Part shown: piece after piece, positions 13,717 through 51,635 of the stretch
Position numbering within the stretch: the stretch's first letter is position 1
Layout of the letters: each line of letters begins with the position of its first letter
NCBI GenBank assembly: GCA_963698845.1
Contig: CAVOSH010000006.1
Coordinates: 37,242-101,241, forward strand
Reading direction: 5' to 3'
Length of the DNA stretch: 64,000 nt
Origin: an uncultured Acidobacteriaceae bacterium
GTDB taxonomy: Bacteria; Acidobacteriota; Terriglobia; Terriglobales; Acidobacteriaceae
Program-made: the position numbers and the translations under genes
The notes under the pieces: model-generated
Told to the model about the DNA's origin: nothing
The model's database searches: none
The model's input: only the letters and a program-made list of their open reading frames with translations

Positions 13717-14840
13717 GCTCTTCCCTCGCTGCGGCCGTAATTTTCTAAGGCAAGCTCAGGCTCCCATTTTCTCGGAGGCTGACCTTCCAGCGCCTTGGCG
13801 ATGGCGGCGATGTGCTCCGGCGTGTTGCCGCAGCAGCCGCCGGCAATGTTGATCAGTCCGGCTCGCGCGAAATCGCCCAGGTAGCGCGCCATATCTTGTG
13901 GACCGAAATCGAATCCCGTTTCCGCCAGCGGGTTCGGCAGACCGGCATTGGGATAGCAGGAAATCGGCACGTCCGCTTTTTCGGCAAGCTCTTCCAGAAA
14001 CGGATACATCAGGTCAGGGCCGATCGAACAGTTGAGGCCCACCGACAACGGCTTCACATGCCGAACGGCGTTCCAGAACGCTTCGGTGGTCTGCGCGGAA
14101 ATCATCGTCTCACCGCCCCGCCCTACCGCCGCCGAGATCATCACCGGCAACTGTTTGTCGTCTTCGTCAAACACCTCGCGAATGCCAACCAGCGCCGCCT
14201 TGGCATTTAGCGAATCGAAGATCGTCTCAACCAGCAGCAGGTCAACGCCACCAGCCATGAGTCCGCGTATCTGCTGCTTGTATGCAGTCTTCACCTGATC
14301 AAAGGTGACCACCCGAAAGCCGGGATCATCGGCATCAGGCGAGTTCGAGAGCGAAACCGTCAGCGGTCCAATTGCGCCGGCGACGAAACGCTGGCGCGAG
14401 GTCGCAGTGCCCACGCGGTCCGCCCACTCCCGGCACTGCTGAGCCGATTTCTCGTTGATCTCCCACGCCAGGTCTCCCAGGAAAGGATCGTCGACCACCT
14501 TCTGATAGAACTCGGGATCCTTCCGGCCACCACGCTCGCGCGGATCTTCAACGAAAAATTCACTCTGGGTAATGCTGGTCGCACCGAAGGTATTGGTCTC
14601 AATGATATCGGCGCCGGCCTCCAGAAAGCGGCGATGGATGTCACCGATCATCTTCGGCTGGGTGAGCGAGAACAGGTCGCCATTGTTCAGCAGACCTTTG
14701 GTCGCGTCCTTGAAGCGCTCTCCCCGGATGTCGGTTTCTTTCATGCCGTAGGTGCGGATGGTCGTACCCATCGCTCCATCGATGATGGCAATGCGTTCGG
14801 CGAGGATCTTCTCCAGAGGATGTTCGTGAGCTTTCATCAT
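13713..14840 (-). CDS. metH: MetH homocysteine-binding (S-methyltransferase) domain as a separate ORF
   Basis: 375 aa, ..[27 protein letters not shown]... Its TGA overlaps the GTG of the next ORF (GTGA at 13713-13716). In E. coli this is one polypeptide. Confidence 0.8.
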
Positions 14841-14975
14841 CTATGTCCTTGTGGCCCTGTCTGCCGTAGTCGCGTCAAGTCAAAGGACAGCGCGTGACCG
14901 GGAAATGCCAACGCCTTTAGTGTGCATGAGCGCAAATTGGCTGGTGGTGCCTGATTTCCCTTTCTTTTGATTATA
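14841..14975 (-). promoter_or_regulatory. metH upstream region: TATAAT box and stem-closed leader
   Basis: On the minus strand, TATAAT at 14970-14975. The 7-bp stem GGGAAAT/ATTTCCC (14954-14960 / 14900-14906) encloses an inner GCCAA/TTGGC pair. No known riboswitch class was recognised. Confidence 0.3.
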
Positions 14976-15128
14976 ACGAGGCGGTAAACGTTCCAAACTC
15001 GTTACCCGGCGCGGCATGGCAATGTGATACGTTGGCAACGGCTTTAGGCAATCGTGTTACGGTGATAACGATCCAGTCTGTGCCCTGCAGCCGCAGTTCG
15101 CGAAGAAAGCAAGTAGCAACCCAAAAGC

Positions 15129-16163
15129 ATGGCAGCTCACAGCACTCGCAAGGCGCTTCGTTCCAGCCGGAGCAGTCACCGGCATTGGCAGCCTGCCTTT
15201 CAAGTCCGGACATCGGCCGTTGCAGCGGTAGCCGAAATGTCGGCACAGGATTCCCTTTCTGGCCGCAGTTGCCGCAACTCTCCGACTGCGAAAATATCAT
15301 CGGCCAGGGTTTAGGCGCCGTGGCGAATCTGATCGAGTCTCGCGAGGAAGGCTACGGTTACCAGGTCAAGGAGGGCGAGTTGGATTCGGTGCTCGAAATC
15401 TTTCACCGGAGTGATGGCGAGCTGACGCCGGCAGAACGCGGCGGGATTCGCGGCTTTCGAAGAAGCGCTCTCATCAGGTCTCTTCCGCGAGGCCGTCGCC
15501 GTTAAAGGGCAGATCGAGGGCCCGATTACGCTGTCGGCCTATCTTTTTCATCGAGGCCGGCCATTCCTGTCGGACCCTGCACTCTTTGCCGCCGTCGCAT
15601 TTCACATCTCGCAGATCGTCTGCTGGCAGATCGACCGGCTGAAGCGGGCTGGCCTGCCGGTATTGCTGTTCGTCGATGAGCCGGCGTTGTGCCTCGAAGC
15701 GCCGGCAGGAGGATTGTCGCGGAGGAAAAGAGGCTCGAGGCATTGGCGGTCACCCTTGAAGATGCGAGAGTTCGCGGGGCCTACGCGGGATTGCATTGTT
15801 GCGCGACGCGTCCGTTCGAACGAATGCGCCGCGCCCAGCCGGACATCTTCTCGTTCGATGCCGATGAGGGCTGGAGCAGTTTTTCGCCGATTCGCATGCG
15901 CTCGACTTCGTGCATCAAGGCGGAATGGTTGCGTACGGTATAGTTCCGACCCGGCCGGGCTTCAACGCCGTCGATTCCGCGAGCATCTTGTTCGCTGGCT
16001 GCAAGCGGCGTCCCAGGCCGGCGATCCGCAGGAGTTGGCTCAACGCGCTATGATCACGGCGACTTGCGGACTGGGACTGCTCGATCCGTCTTCCGTCGTC
16101 GAATCGTTCGGCGTCGCGCACAGCATCAGCAAACTGATTCGAGCCCTGGCCGGGGAACAGTAG
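15129..16163 (+). pseudogene. MetE-like (cobalamin-independent methionine synthase catalytic-domain family) gene, at least five frame breaks
   Basis: The pieces TGIGSLPF, FPFWPQLPQLS, KGQIEGPITL, LLFVDEPAL, GLHCCA, FSFDADEG and ITATCGLGLL appear in order but in alternating frames. Breaks near 15200, 15455, 15705, 15862 and 15985. The start is uncertain. Confidence 0.5.
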
Positions 16164-16217
16164 CATCGCAACACCGCGGCCGCAGCCGGTGCGATCAAAC
16201 AGGAGTAAAGTTCACTA

Positions 16218-16988
16218 ATGAATTTTCTTCTCGGTGCCCCATGGATTTTCTTCGTCTGCGTGGCAGCGGCACTCTTTGTGTCAACGCTAGTGGGGTTCAG
16301 GCTCGCGTCGGCCACGAGCGTAAACGAGGACGCCCATCGTCATGAGCACATCTCAGGACTGCGCGAAGGCCTGTTCGTCCTGCTGGGCCTGTTGCTGGGC
16401 TTTACGATCGCCATGGCGCTTCCCAGATTCGACCAGCGCAGAGACCTGGTCGCCGAAGAAGCGCATGCCATCGGCACAGTGTGGCTGCGAGCCCAGTTAC
16501 TGCCGGAGCCTGAACGCTCGAAGAGCGAGCAATTGTTGCGCGAATATGTCGGCGTGCGAAGATCTTTTGCCGGAGAGACGCTGGGAAACCCCGTGGAGTT
16601 GGACCGTACCATCCAGCAGACCAACGCTATTCAAGATGAGCTTTGGAAGCAGGCGCTGCAGGTCGCACAACAGAACCAGAGCGCCATCGTCACCTCCTAC
16701 GTGCAGGGTCTGAACGAGATGGTCGGCATCTCCGAGAAGCGCCTGGCGGCCTTCGAGAACCGCGTTCCCGAAGCTGTGTGGATCATTATCCTGGTGGTCG
16801 CCATCTTTCAGAGCTTCATCACGGGCTATAGTCTGAAGCGCAAAATCTGGCTGTCTCTTATTGTCACGCCGCTGGTGATGGCGCTGGTCATGGCCCTAAT
16901 TGTCGATCTGGACGATCCGCACACCGGCCTGATCCATATTCAGCAAAACAGCATGAATCGGCTAGCCAGTGAACTGAACGGGCAGTGA
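16218..16988 (+). CDS. DUF4239-like membrane protein (paralogue of 4737-5492)
   Basis: 256 aa with the same TM layout as the first copy. Confidence 0.65.
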   Translation: MNFLLGAPWIFFVCVAAALFVSTLVGFRLASATSVNEDAHRHEHISGLREGLFVLLGLLLGFTIAMALPRFDQRRDLVAEEAHAIGTVWLRAQLLPEPERSKSEQLLREYVGVRRSFAGETLGNPVELDRTIQQTNAIQDELWKQALQVAQQNQSAIVTSYVQGLNEMVGISEKRLAAFENRVPEAVWIIILVVAIFQSFITGYSLKRKIWLSLIVTPLVMALVMALIVDLDDPHTGLIHIQQNSMNRLASELNGQ

Positions 16989-17065
16989 GCGTTTGCAATT
17001 TGACCCGGAGATAACACTTAGCAACTCCCTCTTTTAGAGATACGATTTCTCAACGAGGAACCACG

Positions 17066-18565
17066 ATGGCTGGAGCGGCAATCTCGATAAACAGATTGAG
17101 TCTCGCTCTACTCGTGGCGTCGCTCCCATCGATGCTATTCGGCCAGGCTGCTCCCATGTCAAGCCCACCCGCACAGACTCTCGCGGCCAGCCCCGCGCTG
17201 CAATCCGCAGGAGCGGAAGCACAACTTCCAGTCAACTTCGAGCGCCACACCGGCGACCTCGACGAGATGGTGAAGCGCGGCAGCATCCGCGCCCTTGTAC
17301 TTTACAGCCGCACCGGATTTTTTTACGTCAACGGGCGACCTGCCGGTATCAATTACGAGGCCCTGAGCGCCTTCCAGCAGTTCGTGAACCGAAGGCTTCG
17401 CGGCAGACAACACATCGAGGTCACGTTCATCCCGATGCGCCCGGACCAGATTCAGGCAGCGCTGACACAAGGAGTGGGCGATGTCATTGCCTACGGCCTG
17501 GTGGAGACTCCCGAGCGCGCACAGGAAGTTTCCTTCTCGATTCCGATCCAAACTGATGTGAAGCAGGTCGTGGTAGGCGGCAAGAATTTCGGCACCATCT
17601 CGAGCGTGGACGATCTGAGTGGAAAGAAGATCTTTGTAAATCCTCTCGCGTCCTACTCTCAGAACCTGGAGAAGGTCAATGCAACCCTGCGCAGTCAGGG
17701 CAAGCCGCCCATCCTGATCGAAGCAGCCGACAAAAACCTGATGGACGAAGACCTGATGGAGATGGTTAACGCGGGCTTGCTGCCCGCCACGGTCACGCTA
17801 GCGGAGCGTGCCGATCTGTGGTCTCAGGTCTTGCCCAGTATCACTCCGTATCCGAAGGTCGCCATCGGCAGCGAAGGGAACCTGGCATGGGCGATGCGCA
17901 AGAACAATCCGCAATTAACCCAACTGGTAGACGACTTCGCCAAAACCCACGCCGCCGGAACATCCTTCGGCAACACTTTGCTTCGCGAGTACCTTCAGCA
18001 AGGCACAGCGCTGAGGGATGCGACCTCGGAATCCGAGATCAAAAAGTTCAAGGAGCTGGTGGCATACTTCAAGAAGTATGCGTCCCAGTACAACTTCGAT
18101 TACCTGATGATCGTAGCGCAAGGCTACCAGGAATCGATGCTGGAGCAGTCGGCCAGAAGCCCCGGAGGAGCGGTTGGCATCATGCAGGTCAAGCCCTCGA
18201 CCGCGGCGGCCGCGCCTATCAGCATTCCCGACATCATGACCGCCGAGAATAACATTCATGCCGGCGTCAAAATCCTGCGGGACATTGCGGACCAGTATTT
18301 CAATGATCCGGCGATCGATCCGACCGACCGCCTGCTGTTCACCTTCGCCGGATACAACGCCGGCCCCAATCGTATCGCTGACCTGCGCAGGAGAGCGGCC
18401 GTGCAAGGGCTGGACCCGAACAAGTGGTTTGGAAATGTCGAGTTGCTGGTTGACCAGACTGTAGGACCGGTGACCGTGCAATACGTCAGCAACATCTACA
18501 AGTACTACGTTGCTTATCGTCTGGTCGTGCAGGAGGAAGGCTCGCTGCAGGGATCGGTGAATTGA
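17066..18565 (+). CDS. MltF-like lytic transglycosylase (periplasmic solute-binding family 3 domain + SLT domain)
   Basis: 499 aa with a signal peptide. SLT catalytic block ...QGYQESMLEQSARSPGGAVGIMQVKPSTA... and ..AGYNAGPNR.. Confidence 0.85.
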   Translation: MAGAAISINRLSLALLVASLPSMLFGQAAPMSSPPAQTLAASPALQSAGAEAQLPVNFERHTGDLDEMVKRGSIRALVLYSRTGFFYVNGRPAGINYEALSAFQQFVNRRLRGRQHIEVTFIPMRPDQIQAALTQGVGDVIAYGLVETPERAQEVSFSIPIQTDVKQVVVGGKNFGTISSVDDLSGKKIFVNPLASYSQNLEKVNATLRSQGKPPILIEAADKNLMDEDLMEMVNAGLLPATVTLAERADLWSQVLPSITPYPKVAIGSEGNLAWAMRKNNPQLTQLVDDFAKTHAAGTSFGNTLLREYLQQGTALRDATSESEIKKFKELVAYFKKYASQYNFDYLMIVAQGYQESMLEQSARSPGGAVGIMQVKPSTAAAAPISIPDIMTAENNIHAGVKILRDIADQYFNDPAIDPTDRLLFTFAGYNAGPNRIADLRRRAAVQGLDPNKWFGNVELLVDQTVGPVTVQYVSNIYKYYVAYRLVVQEEGSLQGSVN

Positions 18566-18605: not shown

Positions 18606-20300
18606 TCAGTCTGCTGACGGAACTGCAATAGGCATCTTGCCCGGTTCAAGCAGCGGCAACGGGTTGTTGGGGTGCTGCAGGTCGGGAATCAAGTCGTTCG
18701 AAGCCCCACCAGGAAAGCGCTTGATGCTGGGATACTTGATAATGCTCTGGTCGAAGTCGGTCAGTGTTTGTGAAAAGACAGCCGCCGACCAACCGTTATC
18801 CTCACCGGCGTACCTGCCCGGAGAGGTCTTCAGGTTGTTCATCTCGCCTTCGGCTCCGTTGAAGATCATGTCGTATCTCTCGAACGGATCCATGCTCAGG
18901 TTGTAGACAGCAGGAATGGAACCGAGTCCCTGGGTTGGGCCAAGCCATGAGTCCTTTGCCGTCCAAACAAATTTCCAGGCAATGTTCACCCAGGGCTCAT
19001 TGGGGTCGCCGGCCATGTCCGCACGGATGGCATTCAGATATTCGCCATTGATGTAAACCCACGACCTGCGGGCCGAGTGCTGCGCCTTGCCCAATATGTA
19101 AGCGCTGTTGTCGATGCTGTCGAAGTAGATGGGCTTGCCGTTGTTATCCTTCATCTCGCCGGTGGGAGGAGGCGTAATACCGGCCATCGACGCCAGTGTC
19201 GACCAGCAATCGATGTGCGACATCATCTCGCCAAAGCTCGACCCAGCCTGAATGTGTCCGGGCCACCACATGATCGCGGGTACGCGCCAGCCACCTTCGA
19301 AGGCCGAACCTTTCTCGCCGCGAAATGGCGTGGTGCCGGCATCGGGATAGGCATCGAGCCACGCGCCGTTGTCAGCCGTCACGATCACGATGGTATTCGG
19401 CGCGTCGGCACGGATCTCATCCAGCACCTTGCCGATGTCGGCGTCCATCTCCATCAGCGAGTCCGAGTAGTCGCCAAGATGCGACTTGCCGCGGAAGTCG
19501 GGCGCCGCATTGGTCGGGTTATGCATCTTGATCCAGTTGACGTCCATGAAGAATGGCTTGCCGCTCTTGGCATGCTCCTTGATGTAGGCGACTGCGTTGT
19601 CGGCCTGCCGCTCATCGTAGGTTGCCAGCGAGTCATAGGTGATGGTTCCGACTTTCGTTGCTGGTTTGCCGGCTACACCTTCCCATTCGCCGAGGTTGAC
19701 GACGGAGTCATACATCTTTTCGAAGTCGGGGTTGTACGACGGGAACCAGGGATGAAACCACTTCGAGGTGTCGTTGTAGGAGTACACACCGGCGTAATAC
19801 GCGGCGAACTGCTTCATCTCGTCGAAGCCATGATTGATGGGATAGGCAACCGGCTTGTCGCCCAGGTGCCACTTGCCGGAGAAATAGGTGCTGTAGCCGT
19901 TCTTCTTGAAGAACTCGGCAATGGTTGGGGTCTCGGGGCGCAGGTAGTTTTCGTCGCCCGGCGCCACTACGATCGACAGCGCCGAGCGAATCGGTATGCG
20001 TCCCGTGATGAAGGAGGCGCGGCCGGCGGTGCAACTCGCCTGCCCATACCAACTGGTGAAGACGGCGCCCTCCTTGGCCATGCGGTCCACATTCGGCGTG
20101 GGATGCCCTAGGGTCAGGCCTCCTCCCGAATACGCACCAAAGTCGTTCCAACCGGTGTCATCGGTCATCAGCATGACGATGTTAGGACGTTGTGTATTTG
20201 TAGCTTGTGCTTCAGCGCTGACACCGCCGCCCAAGAAGAGCAGGCTTTGCACGGCAAGGGTTCCTAATGCGATTTTGGCGATCATAGCTTCCAAATCCAT
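18606..20300 (-). CDS. Arylsulfatase-family sulfatase (secreted)
   Basis: ATG 20300 is preceded by GGAGGAAG and followed by a signal peptide. ..NIVMLMTDDTGWND.. and the active-site stretch QASCTAGRASFITGR. Confidence 0.85.
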   Translation of the reverse strand: MDLEAMIAKIALGTLAVQSLLFLGGGVSAEAQATNTQRPNIVMLMTDDTGWNDFGAYSGGGLTLGHPTPNVDRMAKEGAVFTSWYGQASCTAGRASFITGRIPIRSALSIVVAPGDENYLRPETPTIAEFFKKNGYSTYFSGKWHLGDKPVAYPINHGFDEMKQFAAYYAGVYSYNDTSKWFHPWFPSYNPDFEKMYDSVVNLGEWEGVAGKPATKVGTITYDSLATYDERQADNAVAYIKEHAKSGKPFFMDVNWIKMHNPTNAAPDFRGKSHLGDYSDSLMEMDADIGKVLDEIRADAPNTIVIVTADNGAWLDAYPDAGTTPFRGEKGSAFEGGWRVPAIMWWPGHIQAGSSFGEMMSHIDCWSTLASMAGITPPPTGEMKDNNGKPIYFDSIDNSAYILGKAQHSARRSWVYINGEYLNAIRADMAGDPNEPWVNIAWKFVWTAKDSWLGPTQGLGSIPAVYNLSMDPFERYDMIFNGAEGEMNNLKTSPGRYAGEDNGWSAAVFSQTLTDFDQSIIKYPSIKRFPGGASNDLIPDLQHPNNPLPLLEPGKMPIAVPSAD

Positions 20301-20720
20301 TTTGCTTCCTCCGTGTTGTAAGACTCTGTAGTGTTCTCTTCCCAACCCCGCACCCACCGTGGACACAGCGGGCCTTCGGCTTTCGGCTGCTCACAGCAGC
20401 CGTATAGCAGAGCGAACCCGCAGGACGTGAACTCCGAGAAGGAGTACAGTCGCTGCCCTGAAAAGAACAGTGAGTGTATCGACGAAATTGTGAACTTCTG
20501 GATTACGTTTTTCAAGAAAATCAGCATGAAGATGCCGAAAGTTCTACGTCGTATGTAGCCGGCGTACTTAGATTTTGGTGCGGACTTTCATATGTTAGAA
20601 ACAATTTGTATTGCGTTTCGAAGGCGACGCCTTCGTTGTGAAACAGAGAAACCACCGATCGGCGAATCGCTGGGGGACGCAGACACGGCTCGTGCTAGTC
20701 TTTTGGTTCAACCGTGCCTT

Positions 20721-42097: not shown

Positions 42098-43165
42098 TCA
42101 ATGCACGTTTGCGTGATCCTTTAAAATCGCCGCCCACTCACGATTAATTCGCTGTTGCCACTCTTCGGAGGGCAAACTTCCTTTTGCCTGATAGCCGCTG
42201 CGGCGGTTAGTCTCAGCCACAATCGCTTCGCGCACCGGGTCAAACTCTCCGAGTTCCAGCCGCTGGTAGAGCTGTTCGATCACTCTCACCGGATTGGCGA
42301 TCAGCGATTCGTAAGTAATCGCCGCGAATCGATTGGGCGGCAGATCAGCGGTGGTGGCCGCCAACTTCGCCTCGAAGCGCGGACGATCGCCAAGAACTGC
42401 CTCACGAATTGCGTCGTCAGGCGGTATGGGGCCGATGGCGTAAGTCTCGAACATCTTGCGCCACATGCGAACCACCGACTCGAAATTGGTCACCGGATCG
42501 CGAATGATCACCAGGTACCGCGCATCTGGAAGCAACTCCCGCAGGGTACTGACCCGCGCGCCATGCGTCGGCGACTTCAGAATCAGCGGACGGCCCGCTC
42601 CCCGAACCGACACCCCGGCTAGGAAATTCAGAAAGACTTCCCGCCAATGCTTTTCCTCTTGCGGTGAAAGATCCTTGGGATCCGTCAGCTTCAGCGCTTC
42701 CGGCAGGATCGCAGGAATCAGCAGCGCTTCATAAGGCGAACGCGCACCCAGCGACAGCAACGCGAACTCGTCTTCCTGCGGCGAGGCGGCGCTGACCTCC
42801 ATCTCGTCCATTGGGCGCTGCGTGGTAGAACCTCCGCGCGCCAGCACACCAGCTTCCGAGAAGAGAAAGTGATGCGGGTTCATGCAGGCATGCGTGGTGG
42901 GATATGTATAGCGTTTGTCCAGGCACAGCAGCTCATGCAGCAGGGTTGTGCCGGAGCGCCAATAACCCAGAACCACAACCGCATTGCGCAAGTTTGCCTG
43001 CGCTAGTTGCTGGCGATTGACCGTCTCCTGTAGCCCGGACATGGCGGAGAACACCGAGCCCGGCGCCAGCGTCTGCCAAAGCAGCATGGGGCTGGGCCGG
43101 AGATGCCAGTTCCGGCGGAGCTGTCGCCAGGCGCTGGAGGTCAAGTTGAGATATTGTCGGCTCAC
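42098..43165 (-). CDS. PAPS-dependent sulfotransferase family protein
   Basis: 5'-PSB loop ..VVLGYWRSGTTLLHELL.. The GTG overlaps the upstream stop (GTGA at 43162-43165). Confidence 0.85.
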   Translation of the reverse strand: MSRQYLNLTSSAWRQLRRNWHLRPSPMLLWQTLAPGSVFSAMSGLQETVNRQQLAQANLRNAVVVLGYWRSGTTLLHELLCLDKRYTYPTTHACMNPHHFLFSEAGVLARGGSTTQRPMDEMEVSAASPQEDEFALLSLGARSPYEALLIPAILPEALKLTDPKDLSPQEEKHWREVFLNFLAGVSVRGAGRPLILKSPTHGARVSTLRELLPDARYLVIIRDPVTNFESVVRMWRKMFETYAIGPIPPDDAIREAVLGDRPRFEAKLAATTADLPPNRFAAITYESLIANPVRVIEQLYQRLELGEFDPVREAIVAETNRRSGYQAKGSLPSEEWQQRINREWAAILKDHANVH

Positions 43166-45129
43166 GCGGATGTCTGCAATAGACCGGGGAATTTGGAGTT
43201 GATGGCCTGGCGCAACTCCATCGCCTTTTCCGGATGGTCGGCGCTGCGATCGACCGTCCAGTCCTGCGACTCACTCAGCGGACGCAGCACGCCCTGCTGC
43301 GAAGAAAGCAAGACGACGTACTGATAACGGCTGTCGGTGACGCCAACGGTGCCGTAGTACAACGGCATTGGCTTAAAAATGCTGTTCGTCTCCAGGAACT
43401 GGCAGAAGGCCATGCCACCGTCCTCACCGCTGCCCTGGCCGTTCAGGAAGGGCGCCAGCGAACGGCCCATCATCCAGTCAGGCTTGGGCTGGCCGGCAAT
43501 CTCCAGAATCGTAGGCGCCAGCGAAGTTTGATCCGCGGTATACGAAACGGTGCGGCCCTGCTGCTGACCGGGGGTGCGGATGATCAGCGGAATGTGAATC
43601 TCCGGCCGGGTCATGTACTGATTTTCGTGCTGGTAAACCCCGCCCTCGAAGCTCTCTCCGTGATCGGCCGACACGATGACGGTCGTATTGTTCATTCGTC
43701 CGCTTTTCTCGAAGGCCGACATAAATGAGCCGAAGGCGCGATCGGCGGTCAGGATGAACTCGTCGTAGGCCAACCGCCGCAGATCGACCAGGGGCTGCTG
43801 ATCGGGTTGGTAAACCGGGTAGAAACGACGTGCGCCATCGTCGCCTTCGTCTTCGAACTTGCGTAGCTCCTCATTGGGAAGAAACGTGCCACGTGAAGCA
43901 GCGTCCGGTCGGTACGGGCTGTGCGGCGTCATGACATGAATCCAGAGAAAGAAACCCTCGGGCAGCTTTTCCAGAATCTTCTCCCCATGCGCGAAGCTCT
44001 CGTTCGCCGGATAGCGCCGGAACAGGTCCAACGGCAGGTCGCCCATAAAGTTCCAGGTCGTCATCATGTCGTTGTATTCATCCATCCGGTTGCCGATTCC
44101 GGAATTCTGATGCAACGCTGCAGTACCCTGCCAGAGATGCTGCAACCCGCCCTGCTGAAAGATAGGCTCGGGTAGAAAATCGTATTCGCTGCGCAGGCTG
44201 TCGACCAGGTAGTAGGCATACGGATTCGAGAGGAAAGCGCCGGTAGCGAAGCCGGCCGACCGCATCTGGTGCGGCAGGCTTTTGGTTACTTCACTCGGCT
44301 GAATTCTGCCGATGATCTGGTAAACGCGGTTTTGCGTGGGGTACACGCCCGTCAACATGGTCGCAATGCCGGGAGTGGTGAAGGTCGACGCCGAGTAAAA
44401 ATTCTTGAAGACGGTGGCATTGCGCGCGAAGGCGTCGATGTTCGGACAAGTCGGCAGGCGATAACCATACACCGACATGTCTTCGGCCGACAGGGCGTCG
44501 AAGGTGATCATCAGGACGTTCGACTTCGGCCGCTGTGGAGCCAGTGCCGCCCTTACGATAGGCACGGTTTTGCTCAACGCATACTCGGTAGCGACCAGAC
44601 CGGCAGCGCCGGCCACGGTAGCGATGGCCGCGCGTCGGGTCATCCTGTCGCCCATGAGGCCGTCGATACTGGTCACCACCTGCCGTCGCGTGCGCGGGAT
44701 CCACAGCACCGCGACGAAGACGAGAAAGTGAATGACGAGGAGCGAGTTCAGAGCCTTCGGGCTGAGATCAGCCTTCCAGGAATGTATCAGGGTAACCAGC
44801 GCGAATCGGGAGTCGAAGTAGATCACCAGGATCACGCCCGCTTTGATTGTCCAGTCGGCAATGCGTTGGCGGGATGACTCGAAGCGCCAGAGAAACGGAG
44901 CGACCACCGCGGTGCAAACCGTTCCGGCGAAGATGCCCAGCAGAGCCACGAAAACGAAGCGGACCACCACCTCGAAGACGATCTCGCTGGTGATCAGATA
45001 AAACGTCCAGCCCTGAACTTCTCCCTGGGCGAGTTTCAGCGCTTCGGCGAATAACAAGCCGACAATCCCAAGGGTAATGAGCCGGAACCAGAGGGTTCTT
45101 ACCGTAGAGCGGAAATCACTTCTAGGCAT
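43162..45129 (-). CDS. Membrane-anchored sulfatase-like (LtaS/EptA-type alkaline-phosphatase superfamily) transferase/hydrolase
   Basis: About 5 N-terminal TM segments, then ..NVLMITFDALSAEDM..SASTFTTPGIATMLTG..VIVSADHGESF. A Thr sits at the nucleophile position, as in LtaS/EptA. Confidence 0.8.
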   Translation of the reverse strand: MPRSDFRSTVRTLWFRLITLGIVGLLFAEALKLAQGEVQGWTFYLITSEIVFEVVVRFVFVALLGIFAGTVCTAVVAPFLWRFESSRQRIADWTIKAGVILVIYFDSRFALVTLIHSWKADLSPKALNSLLVIHFLVFVAVLWIPRTRRQVVTSIDGLMGDRMTRRAAIATVAGAAGLVATEYALSKTVPIVRAALAPQRPKSNVLMITFDALSAEDMSVYGYRLPTCPNIDAFARNATVFKNFYSASTFTTPGIATMLTGVYPTQNRVYQIIGRIQPSEVTKSLPHQMRSAGFATGAFLSNPYAYYLVDSLRSEYDFLPEPIFQQGGLQHLWQGTAALHQNSGIGNRMDEYNDMMTTWNFMGDLPLDLFRRYPANESFAHGEKILEKLPEGFFLWIHVMTPHSPYRPDAASRGTFLPNEELRKFEDEGDDGARRFYPVYQPDQQPLVDLRRLAYDEFILTADRAFGSFMSAFEKSGRMNNTTVIVSADHGESFEGGVYQHENQYMTRPEIHIPLIIRTPGQQQGRTVSYTADQTSLAPTILEIAGQPKPDWMMGRSLAPFLNGQGSGEDGGMAFCQFLETNSIFKPMPLYYGTVGVTDSRYQYVVLLSSQQGVLRPLSESQDWTVDRSADHPEKAMELRQAINSKFPGLLQTSA

Positions 45130-45349
45130 CGCGTCGCAGGCGCCGCGTCAGCGCGCTAAAACCAGCGGCAATCTGCTTTCTCAGGAATGTCGCGGCGGCG
45201 GAGAGCATGATCAGGAGTGGGGTGATGATCTGCGAAGCCAGACCTACCGCGTTGGGATCCGTGTACGCATGAGCCGGAGTGGGGACTGACACCAGGAAAA
45301 GAGCACACAAAGCACACACTATTAGGGCAGCTTGGACGCGGTACTTCAT
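45122..45349 (-). CDS. Small signal-peptide/membrane protein, first gene of the operon
   Basis: 75 aa. Overlaps the next gene by 8 nt. Confidence 0.45.
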   Translation of the reverse strand: MKYRVQAALIVCALCALFLVSVPTPAHAYTDPNAVGLASQIITPLLIMLSAAATFLRKQIAAGFSALTRRLRRDA

Positions 45350-45562
45350 TAACCCCTCCGGATCTGGAACCTGCGGCTGACACTCGCAAAATTACGCAGC
45401 GAGTATAGCACGGAACTGCGTTTATCTTGTGTTGTTTCGGAAGATCGTCAAAGCAACGCAGGCCACCCGTATGATGAATTTCGTTTTGGAACAGAACATC
45501 CCGGAGACCGCGCCAAAAATCTCAGCGACAGTGCCCGGATCAATCGGCGTGATCTGTTATAC

Positions 45563-47052
45563 ATGATGGTGGTCATGCAAGGTACCCCGCTCCCATTTGC
45601 TTCCGACCTCGAGCAGGGCCCGGTTTATGACGTCGCCATTATTGGCGGCGGATTCTCTGGCGTCATGACGGCGGTGCATCTGCTTCGCCGCTGCCGCCCG
45701 ACCACATCCATATTGCTGATCGAGCGCGGTGAGCACCTCGGCCGAGGGCTGGCGTTCGGCACCCACACGGCCGAGCATCTGCTGAACGTTCCGGCCAAGA
45801 ACATGAGCGCCTTTGCCGACGAACCAGCGCACTTTCTGGAGTGGCTGCAGCGACACAAGGATGCGGAAATCTCTCCCACTGCCTTTGTCTCGCGGCAGTG
45901 GTACGGAGAATACGTTGGCGGCTTACTGGCGGAGCAACTGCGCCGATCGGATTCGCCGTCGTTTCGCTGCGTCCACGAAGAAGTTGCCGCAATCGAGCGG
46001 CGCGACGACACGCTGCGCCTGAGCCTGGCGAATTCTGCGCCTTGCCACGCCCGCCTGGTGGTCCTGGCCGTGGGTAATTTTCCGCCTCCGGATCCTATGC
46101 CTTTGCGCCAGCTATCGAATCGGCGCTACGCCCGCTATGCCTGGTCTCCCGAGGCGCTGGATGGGATCACGGACTCCGAGTCGGTGCTGCTGATCGGTTC
46201 CGGGTTGACGGCGATCGACCAGGTGGTCGCGCTGAAGGGATGCGGATTCAAAGGCACGATCTACATGCTGTCGCGCCGCGGGCTGCTTCCTGCTTTGCAC
46301 CAGCAGGTGTCAGCCTGGCCGGCGGAATGGACTGCAGAGCTCCCAGGATCGATCAGACCGCTGGTCGCCGAGGTGCGCCGGCAAGTACGGGCTGCGGCCG
46401 AGCAACGGAGTGGATTGGCGGGCGGTGATTGACAGCCTTCGACCCGCGACCCAACGCATTTGGAAGAGCTTGAACGTGGCCGAGAGGAAGAGATTTCTGC
46501 GCCACGTGCGCTGCTTCTGGGAAGTACATCGCCACCGTCTCGCGCCGGAGGTCGGGCGAGCGTTAGAAGAGCTCCGGCAGAGCGGCCAGCTAGTCATGAA
46601 AGCCGGGCGAGTGCTCGAATGCGTTGAACGCGATGGTCAGGTCGAGGTCAGCTATCGCGACCGGGAGAGCATCGGGACGGAAACTCTGCGAGTATCGCGA
46701 ATCGTGAATTGCACCGGGCACGAGACCGATGCGCGGAAAATTGACTCTCCGGTTGTGAGGTCGCTGCTGGACAACCATCTGGCCCGGGTGGATTCCAGTG
46801 CCCTAGGTCTGGATATAAACGAAGATGGCGCCGTGATCGACGCTTCGGGCATGGCTTCGAAGTCGTTTGTTTGCGCTGGGATCGGTGCGCAAAGGACTGC
46901 TCTGGGAAAGTACTGCCGTGCCTGAAATTCGGGTGCAGGCACATGCCCTGGCCGAGCGGCTGGCGCAAGCGCTGGCGAGCCCAGAGGATTCGTATGGAAC
47001 GGTCGCTGCGAGAGCGTCAGGCAATAAGTCTGCTGCCGATCAGATGGCTTGA
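45563..47052 (+). pseudogene. FAD/NAD(P)-binding protein (YdhS-like, PF13454 type), two frame breaks
   Basis: ..YDVAIIGGGFSGV.. and ..VLLIGSGLTAID.. continue as ..WRAVIDSLRP..FLRHVRCFWEVHRHR.., then ..FALGSVRKGLLWESTAVPEIR.. Breaks near 46405 and 46870. Confidence 0.7.
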
Positions 47053-47250
47053 CGGAACGCCACGCTAGAGATTGCACAAACGGCCGTTAAGACGAGAGAT
47101 GGCGCTCGACATCTCCAATTCCGGCACGGATTGGTCAGTAATCGTAGAATGTCGACTAGCAGGCAACGCGCTCGGTCGCAGCTCTATATTCCGGGTTCAA
47201 GGCGCGGCAAGACGGCCAGGCGCAGAACTCGCCATCATGATTTAGGGGAC

Positions 47251-48156
47251 ATGGGTAGCATATCGATGTCACATCTCGACTCTCTTGAAGCAGAAAGCAT
47301 TTACATCATAAGAGAGGTTGTTGCGGAATCGTCGCATCCGGCGATGCTGTATTCGATCGGCAAAGATTCCTCGGTCATGCTGCGCCTGGCGCAGAAAGCG
47401 TTCTACCCAGGCAAGATTCCCTTCCCGCTGCTGCACATCGATACCGGCTTCAAGTTCCGGGAGATGATCGAGTTTCGGGATAATCTCTGTCGCGAGCTTG
47501 GTCTGCAACTGATTGCCTACACCAATAAAGAAGCGGTAGCCGACGGAGCCAATCCGTTTCGGCTGGGCACCAGCCGGTGCTGCGGCTTGCTCAAGACCAA
47601 GGCATTGCTCGACGCTCTCGCCATGAATGGAATTGACGTGGCCATGGGAGGAGCGCGCCGGGAGGAAGAAAAGTCGCGCGCGAAGGAACGAGTTTTTTCC
47701 GTGCGCGATTCGCTAGGCCAGTGGGATCCCAAGAATCAGCGGCCGGAGTTCTGGAACCTCTACAACATTCGACTCGCCGGTCAGCAGAGTCTGCGCGTGT
47801 TTCCGCTCTCGAATTGGACCGAGTTGGACGTCTGGGAGTACATCCAGCGCGAGAACATTCCGGTTGTGCCGCTGTACTTCGCCAAAGAACGCGAGATGCT
47901 GGTACGCGGCGAGCTGCTCATTCCCATGGATCACCCGATGGATCTGCTGCCCGGCGAAAAGCCGCAGCGGATCATGTGCCGCATGCGTTCCCTCGGCTGC
48001 ACCTACTGCACCGGGGCTGTCCGGTCTACCGCATCCAACGTTGCCGAAATCGTCGAGGAGTTGAAGCTGGTTCGCGCCTCCGAACGGCAGAACCGCGTCA
48101 TTGATCACGATCAGGAAGGATCAATGGAGATCAAGAAAAGGGAAGGCTATTTTTGA
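47251..48156 (+). CDS. cysD: Sulfate adenylyltransferase subunit 2
   Basis: ..[40 protein letters not shown].. collinear with E. coli CysD. Confidence 0.9.
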
Positions 48157-50008
48157 GCGCTCATCCTGAACAGCGAGACCTGCTCCGGTTTGTCACCGCC
48201 GGCAGCGTCGACGACGGCAAATCAACTCTCATAGGGCGCCTGCTCTACGAGAGCAACGCCATCTACGACGATCAGCTCCTGTCGGTTAAAAAGGCATCCA
48301 CCGCCAAACACGTTGATCTCGATCTGTCGCTGCTGACCGACGGCCTTCGGGCCGAGCGCGAGCAAGGAATCACGATCGACGTTGCCTATCGCTACTTCGC
48401 AACGCCGAAACGCCGCTTCATCATCGCCGACGCTCCCGGGCACGAGCAGTACACGCGCAACATGGCAACCGGCTCCTCGACCGCCGAAGTAGCGCTGATC
48501 CTGGTGGACGCCAGAAAAGGCGTGCTGCGGCAAACTCGACGGCATGCGCTGATTGCCTGGCTGCTCGGCATTCGCCGCATGGTCATCGCGATCAACAAGA
48601 TGGATTTGATCGGCTTCGACAAGCAGGTGTTCGAATCGATCCGCGAAGATTTTGCCGAGTGCGCGACTTCGTTTCCAGGCACGGAGCTCCTCTTCGTTCC
48701 CCTGAGCGCGTTGAGCGGCGAGAACGTCATTCATAGCAACGGCGTGATGCCGTGGTATGACGGCCCGTCATTGCTGGAGCTGCTTGAGACGCATACCGGC
48801 AACGGCTCCCGCTTCCGAGAGCTTCCGGTTTCCGGTGCAGAGCGTGATTCGTCCGAACCAGGATTTTCGCGGCTATACCGGTCAAGTCAGCTCAGGAAAC
48901 ATCAAGGTCGGCGATGAGGTGGTGGCCTTGCCTTCGGGCCAGCGCACCACCATCTCGGGTATCGTTCTGCATACGCGAAAATCTTCAGGAAGCCGAGACC
49001 GCTCAGTCGGTGGTGCTGACCACCTCCGAGCACATCGATCTGGGCCGGGGCGACATGCTCGTCAGTCCCGGGCAGCTGCCTGTCACTTCGACGCGAATCA
49101 CCGCGAAGCTGATCTGGCTTTCGTCGACTCCTCTGCGCAAGGATGTTCGCTACTTCCTCAAACACACGACCAAGACAGTCGTCGCTCGAGTCAGCCGTCT
49201 GAGCCATGTCCTGGATATCGATCTTTTCGAGGAGCGCCCCGCGGACAGCCTGCAGTTCAACGAGATTGGACAAGTGGAGTTCGACCTTCACACGCCGATC
49301 TTCTGCGATCCTTATCACCGCAAACCGCGCCACCGGCAGCTTCATCATCATCGATCCTCTGACGAACGACACGGTGGGCGCGGGCATGATCGTGGAAGCA
49401 GTTCCCTCCCGAACGGAAGAAGGCCGAGACGAATTCGCCACGATGTCGCGGGTTGAGCAAAAGCGCGGCGTCACGGTCTGGTTTACCGGCCTGAGCGGCG
49501 CCGGCAAGACAACCATCTGCCGGGCTGTCGCCACCGAACTGCTGGCTTATGGCTTGCAGATCGAGGTCATCGACGGCGACGTGATCCGGAAACACCTGTG
49601 CAAGGATCTCGGATTCAGCAAGGACGGATCGGGACGAAAACATCCGCCGCATCGCCTTCGTCTCGAAGCTGCTCACGCGGAATGGAACCGATCGTCCTGG
49701 TCTCGGCGATCTCTCCCTATCGCGCCGCACGTGACGAAGCGCGCAAGACGGTCGGAGATTTCATCGAGGTTTACGTGAATACCCCGCTCGAGATATGCGA
49801 GCTCAGAGACACCAAAGAACTCTACAAGCGGGCCCGTGCCGGCAAGGTCCACGGCATGACCGGCATCGACGATCCTTATGAACCGCCGCTGTCGGCGGAG
49901 ATTGTTTGCGACACGGACAGCCAAAGCTTGCGGGAGATTTCTTCCAAGGTGGTTGCGCACATCCTGGAATATCTTTCGTCAAGCAGCGCTGCCGTCGCTC
50001 AGAAATGA
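48153..50008 (+). pseudogene. cysNC: Bifunctional sulfate adenylyltransferase subunit 1 / APS kinase (CysN-CysC fusion), four frame breaks
   Basis: GTPase motifs [14 protein letters not shown] and NKMD. Then the beta-barrel domains and the APS-kinase P-loop GLSGAGKTT, spread over five frames. Breaks near 48790, 48960, 49320 and 49625. Confidence 0.85.
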
Positions 50009-50036
50009 AGAGTCAGTCGTAAATGGGTGGAGGTTC

Positions 50037-50837
50037 GTGACTCCAGCGGCCATCGGCACCAGGATTCTTATCGGCTTAGTTGTAGGAATTCTCGTGGGGT
50101 TGACCGGAGTGGGCGGAGGCATTCTCCTCCTGCCGATACTGACGTCGGTGCTGGGCGTCGCTCCAATCGTGGCAGTGGGCTCCGATGCCGTCGTCAATTG
50201 CGTGACCAAGATCGGCGCAGGATTTGTTCACTGGCGCCGTGGAAATATCAATTGGCGATTGATCGTGTCGTTGCTTTCCGGAAGCGTGCCTGGAGCGATC
50301 CTGGGCGTCTTCTTCCTGACCGTGCTTCATGCGCGGCATGGCGAGAGCGTCAATCACTTCCTGAAAATTGTCATTGCGATTCTGCTGATCGTCATTCCAG
50401 TCATCTCCTTATTTGTGCGAGGCTCGTCAACATCGAGCCCGATGCCTGCGCACGGGAGATCGGCAGAGAACGATTATGGTATCGCCCTGATCGGATTCGT
50501 CGTCGGATTACTCGTGGGCATCACCTCGATAGGATCGGGGACGGTGACCCTGATGTTGCTGCTCGTGTTCTATGGTTATGCTCCGGCGGTCCTGGTGGGT
50601 ACGGACGTTGTACACGCGTTGCTGCTGACCGGAGTTACAGCACTGCTGCAGATGAAGCTCGGCAATGTGGACTATCCGCTGGTAGGGTACGTCCTGATCG
50701 GGTCGATACCTGGAGGCGTGATCGGGGCGTACATCGCCAATCGCATCCCGTCGAAACGGCTGAAGCAAATTCTTTTTGTCGCTCTAATAACATTCGGGAC
50801 GCGAATGTTCTGGGAAGGAATCGTGCATGGTCAATAG
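50037..50837 (+). CDS. TauE/SafE family sulfite/anion exporter
   Basis: ..GLTGVGGGILLLPIL.. and the second-half repeat ..GITSIGSGTVTLMLL.. About 8 TM segments. Confidence 0.8.
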   Translation: MTPAAIGTRILIGLVVGILVGLTGVGGGILLLPILTSVLGVAPIVAVGSDAVVNCVTKIGAGFVHWRRGNINWRLIVSLLSGSVPGAILGVFFLTVLHARHGESVNHFLKIVIAILLIVIPVISLFVRGSSTSSPMPAHGRSAENDYGIALIGFVVGLLVGITSIGSGTVTLMLLLVFYGYAPAVLVGTDVVHALLLTGVTALLQMKLGNVDYPLVGYVLIGSIPGGVIGAYIANRIPSKRLKQILFVALITFGTRMFWEGIVHGQ

Positions 50838-51635
50838 TTCCGAAGAGCAAGAATATCTCGGCCGCATCGCGCGGAGTTTCGCCGCAACTCACGATCTCGC
50901 CCGAGAACTGGCAAGCCGCAAAGTAGATCCCGCGCAGCCGACAGGAGACGATCAAGAACGCCGAACGTCAGATCAGCGACGTGCTCCGCGAAACGTTGCT
51001 GCAAACCGGCGAGGGCTGGCTTTGCGAGGAGGATGCCGATGATCACGTCCGGCTCGGTTGCGACGTAGCCTGGGTGATCGATCCGGTCGACGGCACGCAG
51101 GAGTTCATAACTGGCGTTCCCGAGTGGAGCATCTCAGTCGGCCTGGTGATTGGAGGCAATGCCATCGCGGGCGGTGTATTCAATCCGTCGACCGAGGAGT
51201 TGGTGCTGGGGGCGTTGAATCTCGGGGTGACTTACAACGGCCGCGAGGTCCGCGCTGCCAGCAAAACGAACATGAACGACGCTGTCGTTCTCGCCAGCCG
51301 ACAGGAATTCAACCGCGGAGAGTGGACTCGCTTTCGAGGGCCGCGGGTTTGCGATCCGGCCTACGGGATCGGTTGCCTACAAGTTGGCGCTGGTTGCAGC
51401 CGGACTGGCTGACGCTACCTGGACGCTATCGCCTAAGCACGAATGGGATGTTGCCGCAGGCGTGGCGCTGATCAGTTCGTCTGGCGCTCGCGTCAGTTTC
51501 CTGGGAGGAGCGCCCGTACGGTTCAACCAGAAAGACACACTGCTGCCAGGCCTGATCGCCAGCAGCGCAAGCATCTGGAGCAGAGTGAATTCGCTCATCT
51601 CTGAAGTCGCGCCGCACTCTGCCGCCACAAGTTAA
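50827..51635 (+). pseudogene. Inositol-monophosphatase family protein (CysQ-like PAP phosphatase candidate), two frame breaks
   Basis: ..WVIDPVDGTQEF.. and ..WDVAAGVALI.. motifs lie in different frames. Breaks near 50940 and 51345. Confidence 0.7.

Follow-up and report, generated by a model that had tools for sequence, protein, structure and literature searches.

Several described bacterial systems encode a sulfotransferase dependent on 3'-phosphoadenosine 5'-phosphosulfate (PAPS) beside the genes of sulfate activation, namely nodH beside nodPQ in Sinorhizobium, raxST beside raxPQ in Xanthomonas, and stf beside cysDNC in Mycobacterium. Sulfated envelope molecules are well known from animals, algae, cyanobacteria, rhizobia, and mycobacteria; to our knowledge they have hardly been described in Acidobacteriota, which belong to the most abundant soil phyla. 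The locus described here lies at positions 42098-51635 of the window, i.e., of the whole 64,000-nucleotide stretch of DNA analysed, from an uncultured Acidobacteriaceae bacterium. Its genes were mapped as open reading frames (ORFs) and assigned to families with Pfam and NCBIfam profiles. They form two divergent blocks. The three minus-strand genes, below called the triad, code for a PAPS-dependent sulfotransferase (ST), a membrane-anchored enzyme of the sulfatase fold (SULF), and a small membrane peptide. The five plus-strand genes code for a flavoprotein and for a PAPS-supply (cys) block of CysD, a CysN–CysC fusion, a TauE/SafE permease, and an inositol-monophosphatase-family enzyme. The triad is a conserved unit to which the cys block is repeatedly linked, and we read the whole, with moderate confidence, as a unit that sulfates an envelope lipid or a lipid-linked glycan and has its own supply of PAPS, with ST acting in the cytoplasm and SULF and the peptide on the outer face, on the same molecule.

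Conservation of the triad and its linkage to the PAPS-supply block

In one-genome-per-species bacterial collections 308 stretches encoding ST relatives were found, of which the best 80 were retrieved together with 10 kb on either side; the counts given here come from tblastn and ORF clustering over the fetched loci. Among the 40 loci whose ST is at least 65% identical to that of the window, SULF is present in 35 (directly upstream of ST in 30) and the peptide gene in 35, while cys genes lie within 10 kb in 15 (12 of them complete within the flank) and the flavoprotein gene is found in nine. The corresponding numbers are seven, six, zero, and one for the nine loci with 45-65% ST identity (Bryobacterales and metagenome-assembled genomes, MAGs, of Alpha- and Gammaproteobacteria), and 23, four (by tblastn; more by clustering), zero, and zero for the 33 loci below 45%. 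The triad as such recurs in the Bryobacterales and in the proteobacterial MAGs at 50-60% ST identity. The 120 best-scoring database matches of ST are 72-96% identical to it and are mostly soil-metagenome sequences. Such conservation of ST suggests that its role in the cell is a conserved and not an accessory one.

Three arrangements of the cys block are seen: it is divergent from the triad in the window, in L001, L004, and further loci, upstream of it and co-directional in L008, L017, and L086, and downstream of ST in L022 and L045. In L086 the order is cysD–cysNC–TauE gene–phosphatase gene–peptide gene–SULF–ST, all seven genes lying on one strand with short gaps. Since the linkage of the cys genes to ST survives several rearrangements, it is good evidence of shared function. 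A preliminary description of this DNA, made from its letters, had proposed exactly such a functional link and named neighbourhood conservation as a way to check it; both the physical tie of the cys genes to the sulfotransferase gene and the pairing of ST with SULF bear the proposal out in the close relatives.

At 34-40% ST identity (Terriglobales, Sulfotelmatobacter, Eremiobacteraceae) SULF–ST is situated beside sugar and glycan genes, coding for a SIS/GmhA-like isomerase, a GHMP kinase, an NTP_transferase, a HAD phosphatase, a Bac_transf priming transferase, a GDP-mannose dehydratase, and a GT4 glycosyltransferase. In L085 a cluster of genes for a GT4, a UDP-glucose dehydrogenase, a heparinase-like protein, a deacetylase, and a GT2 is followed by SULF–ST and then by lptC, lptA, and lptB. 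This gene context of the distant relatives points to an envelope glycan as the target of the wider SULF–ST family. The sulfation of an envelope molecule or extracellular polysaccharide (EPS), put forward in the preliminary description, fits it, but the tie to an exosortase/PEP-CTERM locus that was part of that proposal does not hold, the neighbourhood not being conserved in relatives. A Big_2 surface protein adjoins the block in the closest relatives only, and in L004 it lies on the opposite side.

Bryobacterales also carry ST paralogues, 58-75% identical, with neither SULF nor the peptide gene adjacent: L033, L040, and L048 are three copies on separate contigs of one Bryobacterales MAG, and L025 is an 8.76-Mb Bryobacterales chromosome. 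Directly downstream of the seven-gene cluster in L086 (positions 11445-17126) two proteins of ~800 aa are encoded, with CBM96 and Peptidase_S74 (endosialidase chaperone) domains, which are predicted to be tailspike-like carbohydrate-binding proteins. SULF–ST pairs with ST of 40-43% identity are present in the cultured Alphaproteobacteria Thalassospira povalilytica and T. lohafexi (L050, L051) and Insolitispirillum peregrinum (L053), which could serve as laboratory models of the family.

The sulfotransferase

ST is a PAPS-dependent sulfotransferase by profile (87 bits for Sulfotransfer_3, cut-off 27), by its PAPS-binding motifs, and by fold. The 5'-phosphosulfate loop is R70-S-G-T-T74 and the 3'-phosphate motif comprises R222 and S230; in 40 sequences no substitution occurs at G72, T73, T74, R222, or S230 and hardly any at R70 and S71, in agreement with the RSGTT loop reported for this protein in the preliminary description. 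The AlphaFold2 model, with a predicted local distance difference test score (pLDDT) of 93.6, has as its best Foldseek matches Stf1 of Mycobacterium tuberculosis (2zq5, TM-score 0.65) and Stf9 of Mycobacterium avium (2z6v, TM-score 0.67), followed by the CurM sulfotransferase and the tyrosylprotein sulfotransferases. Its sequence identity to the solved Stf proteins is 15-17%. The ratio of nonsynonymous to synonymous substitution rates (dN/dS) relative to L001 is 0.05. The sequence contains neither a signal peptide nor a membrane helix, and ST is therefore expected to act in the cytoplasm, where PAPS is made.

Many ST homologues carry an automatic name from the Joint Genome Institute (JGI), that of the Stf3 reaction (omega-hydroxy-beta-dihydromenaquinone-9 sulfotransferase). 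Stf3 itself is recognised by orthology to Rv2267c and by a Cyp128 partner. As for the partner, neither this locus nor any relative with annotation contains a P450/Cyp128-like gene, and the name is an automatic label.

The sulfatase-fold membrane enzyme

In the AlphaFold2 model of SULF (pLDDT 90.6) five N-terminal helices (residues 6-41, 47-82, 84-118, 124-153, and 161-186) precede the catalytic domain. HMMER aligns T251 (codon 44377-44379) with the formylglycine Cys of the sulfatase-fold protein 4upk, and the motif C-x-P-S-R is replaced by T-T-P-G-I, PSR having become PGI. None of the 44 sequences compared, which reach down to 23% identity, departs from T251 or from the presumed metal-binding and catalytic residues D211, H398, H403, D489, H490, and H501, and dN/dS of SULF is 0.05. 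With its active site invariant, the enzyme is very likely catalytically active. Since the residue at the nucleophile position is always Thr, no formylglycine can form in it.

The preliminary description called SULF an LtaS/EptA-like enzyme, which is right as regards its architecture, namely a five-helix anchor, a catalytic domain predicted to face outward, and a Thr nucleophile, but not as regards its family. The NCBIfam scores lie far below the cut-offs (EptA 37.9 vs 561 bits, CptA 24 vs 404, LtaS 14.8 vs 970), and the nearest relatives are found elsewhere: the best sequence matches in PDB are 4upk, 7p24, and 5g2v, and the top 50 Foldseek matches are all S1 sulfatases or phosphonate monoester hydrolases, with no EptA/LtaS-type member among the 50. 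Of the features of S1 formylglycine sulfatases SULF has the fold with its C-terminal subdomain but not the Cys or Ser of C/S-x-P-x-R. The sulfate-binding Lys of these enzymes aligns with Asn, and by alignment and inspection the DHGES...H motif of SULF resembles that of phosphoethanolamine transferases. SULF is neither a sulfatase in the usual sense nor a documented phosphoethanolamine or phosphoglycerol transferase.

The basic N-terminus and a pair of arginines of the twin-arginine translocation (Tat) type before helix 5 indicate, at the level of sequence, that the catalytic domain faces outward. The Tat-like TRRAAI lies before helix 5, and a twin-arginine-like stretch, MTRRAAIATVAGAAG (44575-44640, minus strand, residues ~164-185), forms that helix, which suggests an origin of the catalytic domain from a Tat-exported sulfatase-like protein to which four further helices were joined.

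The window contains a second sulfatase-family gene, at 18606-20366 on the minus strand, 23 kb from the Thr-type SULF. Its 586-aa product has a signal peptide and a motif of the Cys type, S-C-T-A-G-R, and looks like a genuine secreted formylglycine-type sulfatase.

The small peptide

The peptide encoded upstream of SULF consists of a signal-peptide-like start, an A-Y-x-D-P motif, one transmembrane helix, and a basic tail. It matches no NCBIfam or Pfam family. Its homologues stand beside SULF/ST in 55 loci, and all of them keep [AG]-Y-x-D-P past the signal-like segment; if signal peptidase cuts at the A-x-A-type site, the conserved Tyr would be the first residue of the mature peptide. A PEP-CTERM-type sorting signal was considered and rejected, as the best E values are 0.19-0.46 and the peptide does not end in its basic cluster.

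SULF is duplicated in tandem upstream of one ST in L012, L024, and L030 (two copies) and in L032 (three copies), most copies having a peptide gene of their own. In such loci it is the peptide–SULF pair that is repeated while ST is single, which assigns the peptide to SULF. A single-pass peptide is known in the cellulose-synthase complex Bcs, which also holds the phosphoethanolamine transferase BcsG: there, the cytosolic tail of BcsF recruits the cytosolic BcsE (PMC11470070).

The PAPS-supply block and the flavoprotein

The assignment of cysD, a cysN–cysC fusion, and a TauE/SafE gene to one plus-strand block, made in the preliminary description, agrees with the Pfam and NCBIfam profiles. CysD reaches the level of a curated equivalog (442.9 bits for PRK05253, cut-off 195; 439 bits for PRK12563, cut-off 413). 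The first ~40 codons of its ORF align to L001 and L004 with many indels and the family matches begin at residue 44; these codons are probably non-coding and the true start probably lies near 47251. For CysNC, the equivalog level is reached by the L001 orthologue (793 bits, cut-off 715), to which the pieces in the window are 82-95% identical at the protein level. TauE (cut-off of the profile 32.6 bits) is 89% identical to the L001 protein over the full length, and in 11 loci its gene stands, as here, between cysNC and the phosphatase gene. The phosphatase gene had been described as coding for a CysQ-like enzyme removing 3'-phosphoadenosine 5'-phosphate (PAP). The intact L001 homologue obtains 91 bits against 228.8 for TIGR01331 (CysQ) and 96 against 275 for HisN; like the protein of the window, it stays below every NCBIfam cut-off, and it passes that of Pfam Inositol_P alone. 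The family and the fixed place in the block stand, and the latter suggests a PAP phosphatase.

TauE belongs to the TSUP family, in which sulfite exporters are found but also a sulfate importer, CysZ of Corynebacterium glutamicum (PMC5840216), and the permease may be the block's own sulfate importer. If so, the earlier statement that the window holds no sulfate-transporter gene is weakened, and the notion of a self-contained PAPS unit is strengthened. The other part of that statement agrees with the scan: among the larger window ORFs, which were those scanned, none belongs to cysH, cysIJ, or the classical sulfate-transporter families. Likewise, no cysH or sulfite reductase gene is called in L001 or L086, the cys-linked relatives with full annotation.

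In about 10 loci the flavoprotein gene accompanies the triad, in one case (L005/L084) where the cys block is missing. Searches of structures and of curated families found no solved or curated relative of its product.

Organization of the locus

The features of the locus are collected in Table 1. The genes and families agree with the preliminary description, including the YdhS-like flavoprotein gene placed between the blocks. The minus-strand genes, described as an overlap-coupled operon of a peptide, a five-helix sulfatase-fold enzyme, and a sulfotransferase, do overlap, SULF and ST by 4 nt and the peptide gene and SULF by 8 nt. Sites like the terminator-like hairpin listed are no more frequent here than in shuffled sequences in the consensus scan. 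A single weak promoter-like site, 45666-45638 on the minus strand, lies inside the flavoprotein ORF and is no better than expected by chance. An Rfam scan of the locus, the intergenic region included, gave no match to a riboswitch or any further RNA family at E values of 1 or less.

Table 1. Features of the locus, with positions in the window
Feature	Position	Strand	Basis
Terminator-like hairpin, 64 nt past the ST stop codon	42016-42034	-	consensus scan alone
ST, Stf-type PAPS sulfotransferase, 355 aa	42098-43165	-	Pfam Sulfotransfer_3
SULF, membrane-anchored sulfatase-fold enzyme, 655 aa	43162-45129	-	Pfam Sulfatase, 153.7 bits, and SGSH_C
Small membrane peptide, 75 aa	45122-45349	-	homologues adjoin SULF/ST; dN/dS 0.07
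Divergent intergenic region between the blocks	45350-45562		ORF map
FAD/NAD(P)-binding flavoprotein (NAD_binding_9, YdhS-like)	45563-47052	+	Pfam PF13454, 127 bits
cysD, sulfate adenylyltransferase small subunit	47131-48156	+	NCBIfam PRK05253, PRK12563
cysN–cysC fusion, ATP sulfurylase GTPase subunit and adenosine 5'-phosphosulfate (APS) kinase	48153-50008	+	pieces matching PRK05506, GTP_EFTU, APS_kinase
TauE/SafE (TSUP-family) permease, 266 aa	50037-50837	+	Pfam TauE, 164 bits
Inositol-monophosphatase-family gene, CysQ-like by context	50827-51635	+	Pfam Inositol_P

Frame breaks in the assembly

As the preliminary description had warned, three genes of the locus are broken as assembled, with nine breaks in ~6 kb. 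Two lie in the flavoprotein gene (near 46404 and 46867; tblastn pieces in frames 2, 3, and 1), five in cysNC (near 48792, 48977, 49321, 49625, and 49690; six tblastn pieces in alternating frames), and two in the phosphatase gene (near 50936 and 51335; pieces across three frames). The window itself accordingly holds no intact CysN–CysC frame, while the frames of ST, SULF, cysD, and TauE are unbroken. Aligned with the DNA of L001 and L004, each break comes down to one extra base in a non-homopolymer context; all nine insertions are private to the window, and neither premature stop substitutions nor deletions are present. L001, a 119-kb soil contig and the closest relative found (ST 92% identical), has the same gene order with an intact CysNC (621 aa) and an intact phosphatase (268 aa); its flavoprotein gene has a break of its own, at a site where the window is intact, and an intact 484-aa homologue is encoded in L084.

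The broken genes resemble intact ones in dN/dS, with 0.067 in cysNC vs 0.05-0.09 in the intact neighbours and 0.07-0.1 in the broken genes overall, except for the N-terminal part of the flavoprotein gene (0.23). In an alignment of 12 cys-block loci, private one-base insertions at other sites occur in L049 (11) and in L029, L017, L008, and L009 (1-2 each), which are assemblies of the same project (label "MFD"), long-read soil MAGs. No sequencing run was found to contain the 4.6-kb block; queries with single genes matched soil runs only, with 3-10% of the query words, and these matches came from relatives at 90-97% identity. In short-read contigs of relatives at 93% and 97% the extra base is absent at 49322 and 50938, the two of the nine sites that are covered; the check at 50938 comes from the contig that is 97% alike. 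Outside the locus metH is split into three ORFs (11064-14840, minus strand; S-methyl_trans, Pterin_bind with B12-binding, and Met_synt_B12) and a MacB/FtsX permease gene into two overlapping ORFs (8661-10925, plus strand), which agrees with indel errors spread over the assembly and not confined to the cys block.

The nine breaks are most likely one-base insertion errors of a nanopore soil MAG assembly and not gene decay; with this origin cysNC is probably not inactivated in the organism. A decaying locus, with cysNC and the flavoprotein and phosphatase genes as true pseudogenes and the whole system on its way out, would account for the density of the breaks as assembled, beside intact ST, SULF, cysD, and TauE, yet it is highly improbable, given that the breaks are insertions of a single type, found at other sites in sister assemblies and in further housekeeping genes of the window but absent from close relatives, and that dN/dS of the broken genes, save for the flavoprotein N-terminal part, is like that of intact neighbours.

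Programmed frameshifting or four-base decoding was rejected, as the sites share no codon or motif, the inserted base varies, and similar private insertions occur elsewhere. Where one of the long-read soil MAGs carries a private frameshifting change, it is almost always a single inserted base outside homopolymers, G or C more often than A or T. In practice, such insertions in the nanopore MAGs of this set mimic pseudogenes.

Proposed function and alternatives

In the proposed pathway, sulfate would probably enter through the TSUP permease; by family assignment, CysD with the CysN part of CysNC would convert it to APS, and the fused CysC kinase APS to PAPS. ST would spend PAPS in the cytoplasm to esterify with sulfate an acceptor bound to the membrane, for which an envelope lipid or a glycan linked to a lipid is most likely, and the inositol-monophosphatase-family enzyme would, by its context, clear the by-product PAP. 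Outside the cytoplasmic membrane SULF would act on the molecule that ST has produced, most likely transferring or trimming a phosphate- or sulfate-linked group via a covalent Thr intermediate. The 75-aa peptide would probably couple ST and SULF across the membrane, by analogy to BcsF in Bcs, and one may speculate that the flavoprotein prepares the acceptor, e.g., by hydroxylation. The frame-broken genes would all be functional in the organism.

Several points weigh against this proposal. Of the 40 close loci, 25 have no cys block within 10 kb, and a supply dedicated to sulfation, which would imply separate assimilatory cysH, sir, and ATP sulfurylase genes in the genome, is proposed from linkage. 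The family profile sets neither the substrate nor the direction of TauE, and the phosphatase is not a curated CysQ. The frame breaks are checked against contigs of relatives, and a true recent inactivation of cysNC is conceivable. The triad of close relatives is mostly alone or with the cys block, not in a glycan cluster; it is chiefly the distant homologues, whose function may differ, that have glycan genes as neighbours. Moreover, we know of no biochemically defined reaction of a Thr nucleophile in an S1-type fold and of no characterised member of the triad family.

Were cysD–cysNC–TauE–phosphatase a normal sulfate-activation operon, only by chance the neighbour of an unrelated envelope operon, its absence near the triad in 25 of the 40 close loci would be natural; cysDNC operons are common housekeeping genes. 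Such a coincidence is very unlikely in view of a linkage kept through three rearrangements, once as a co-directional seven-gene cluster, and of a block that always holds an APS kinase and a PAP-phosphatase-like gene, whose product PAPS is exactly what a PAPS-dependent transferase requires; the lack of cysH and sulfite reductase genes in L001, L086, and the window ORFs scanned speaks against it as well. The acceptor could also be a lipid with no glycan involved: the flavoprotein would hydroxylate menaquinone, a hopanoid, or a similar molecule, ST would sulfate the new hydroxyl, and SULF and the peptide would handle or export the product. The model for this is Stf3, which works on a membrane lipid after the hydroxylase Cyp128 (PMC7404182). 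The automatic Stf3 name of many homologues, Stf1 and Stf9 as the closest solved structures, an FAD/NAD(P) oxidoreductase beside the triad, once even where the cys block is missing, and the position of the triad mostly outside glycan clusters in close relatives are in its favour. We nevertheless regard it as unlikely, as the flavoprotein accompanies only nine of the 40 close loci and has no solved or curated relative, identity to the solved Stf proteins is low, the Stf3 name is a label and not a test, and the distant homologues do lie in glycan clusters.

A bolder version of the chemistry makes SULF the real envelope sulfotransferase. ST would load a carrier, which might be an alcohol lipid of the membrane or else the peptide, through the conserved Tyr with which its mature form is predicted to begin, and SULF would pass the sulfuryl group across to lipopolysaccharide, EPS, or another envelope polymer via sulfo-Thr, which would make it a new, PAPS-independent class of sulfotransferases. 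This is consistent with the strict coupling of the three genes and the duplication of peptide–SULF pairs before a single ST, with a fold of sulfate-ester enzymes, not of LtaS/EptA, and a fully conserved active site, and with the Tyr-x-Asp-Pro motif directly past the predicted cleavage site. There is also a parallel in Halobacterium salinarum, where the sulfatase-fold proteins Agl30 and Agl31 are both genetically required for glycan sulfation and, on transfer, sufficient for haloarchaeal N-glycan sulfation, although the paper gives neither their nucleophile nor the sulfate donor (PMC11980604). Both the relay and the new enzyme class are nonetheless decidedly unlikely: no biochemical precedent is known for a sulfo-Thr intermediate, a peptide carrier would be consumed once per sulfate, the S1 sulfate-binding Lys is replaced by Asn, and the DHGES...H motif recalls phosphoethanolamine transferases. 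If true, the relay would account for the sulfation of bacterial polymers outside the cytoplasm.

The reading favoured here, sulfation of an envelope lipid or lipid-linked glycan with a PAPS supply of its own, makes the acceptor the molecule to look for. Once found, it would represent a new surface chemistry for soil bacteria, which would probably influence their charge, their retention of water and binding of metals, and their recognition by phages or predators, and its identification would test whether Thr-type sulfatase-fold proteins transfer, and do not remove, sulfate or phosphate.

Comparison with known systems

A literature search found no paper describing the ST–SULF–peptide unit with a PAPS block, and the three-gene unit seems to have been studied by nobody so far. 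What is new is the fixed unit itself, in which a membrane enzyme of the S1 fold and Thr type goes with a conserved peptide, the spread of this unit over Acidobacteriota and Proteobacteria, and a complete PAPS block including a permease and a phosphatase; the logic of sulfate-activation genes beside a sulfotransferase is already known.

With mycobacterial Stf1 and Stf9 ST shares the fold and the PAPS-binding motifs, but its low sequence identity to them and the absence of Cyp128 from the locus set it apart. SULF shares the catalytic domain, the C-terminal subdomain, and the metal ligands with S1 sulfatases and phosphonate monoester hydrolases (4upi, 6hhm, 2vqr, 4upk), from which it differs in T-T-P-G-I, in five fused membrane helices, and in the loss of the sulfate-binding Lys. 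With EptA/MCR-1, LtaS, and BcsG it has in common five N-terminal helices, an apparently outward domain, a Thr/Ser nucleophile, and the DHGES...H motif; it is separated from EptA, CptA, and LtaS by profile scores of at most 38 where 404-970 are needed and by their absence from its top 50 structural matches. The likeness to BcsF and BcsG is that of a single-pass peptide alongside a membrane transferase, BcsG modifying its polymer outside the membrane (PMC11470070). Agl30 and Agl31, compared at the level of the fold only, belong to the same alkaline-phosphatase superfamily with its sulfatase fold, and one of the two is membrane-bound, like SULF; they differ in being archaeal and in having no canonical sulfotransferase partner reported (PMC11980604).

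The closest parallel in gene content is provided by nodPQ/nodH, raxPQ/raxST, and cysDNC/stf, where the ATP sulfurylase and APS kinase genes likewise lie by that of a PAPS-dependent sulfotransferase and provide the PAPS used in sulfation. The block described here differs from these systems in adding a TSUP permease and a PAP-phosphatase-like gene and in the fixed partners of its transferase, namely a membrane enzyme of the sulfatase fold and Thr type and a small peptide.

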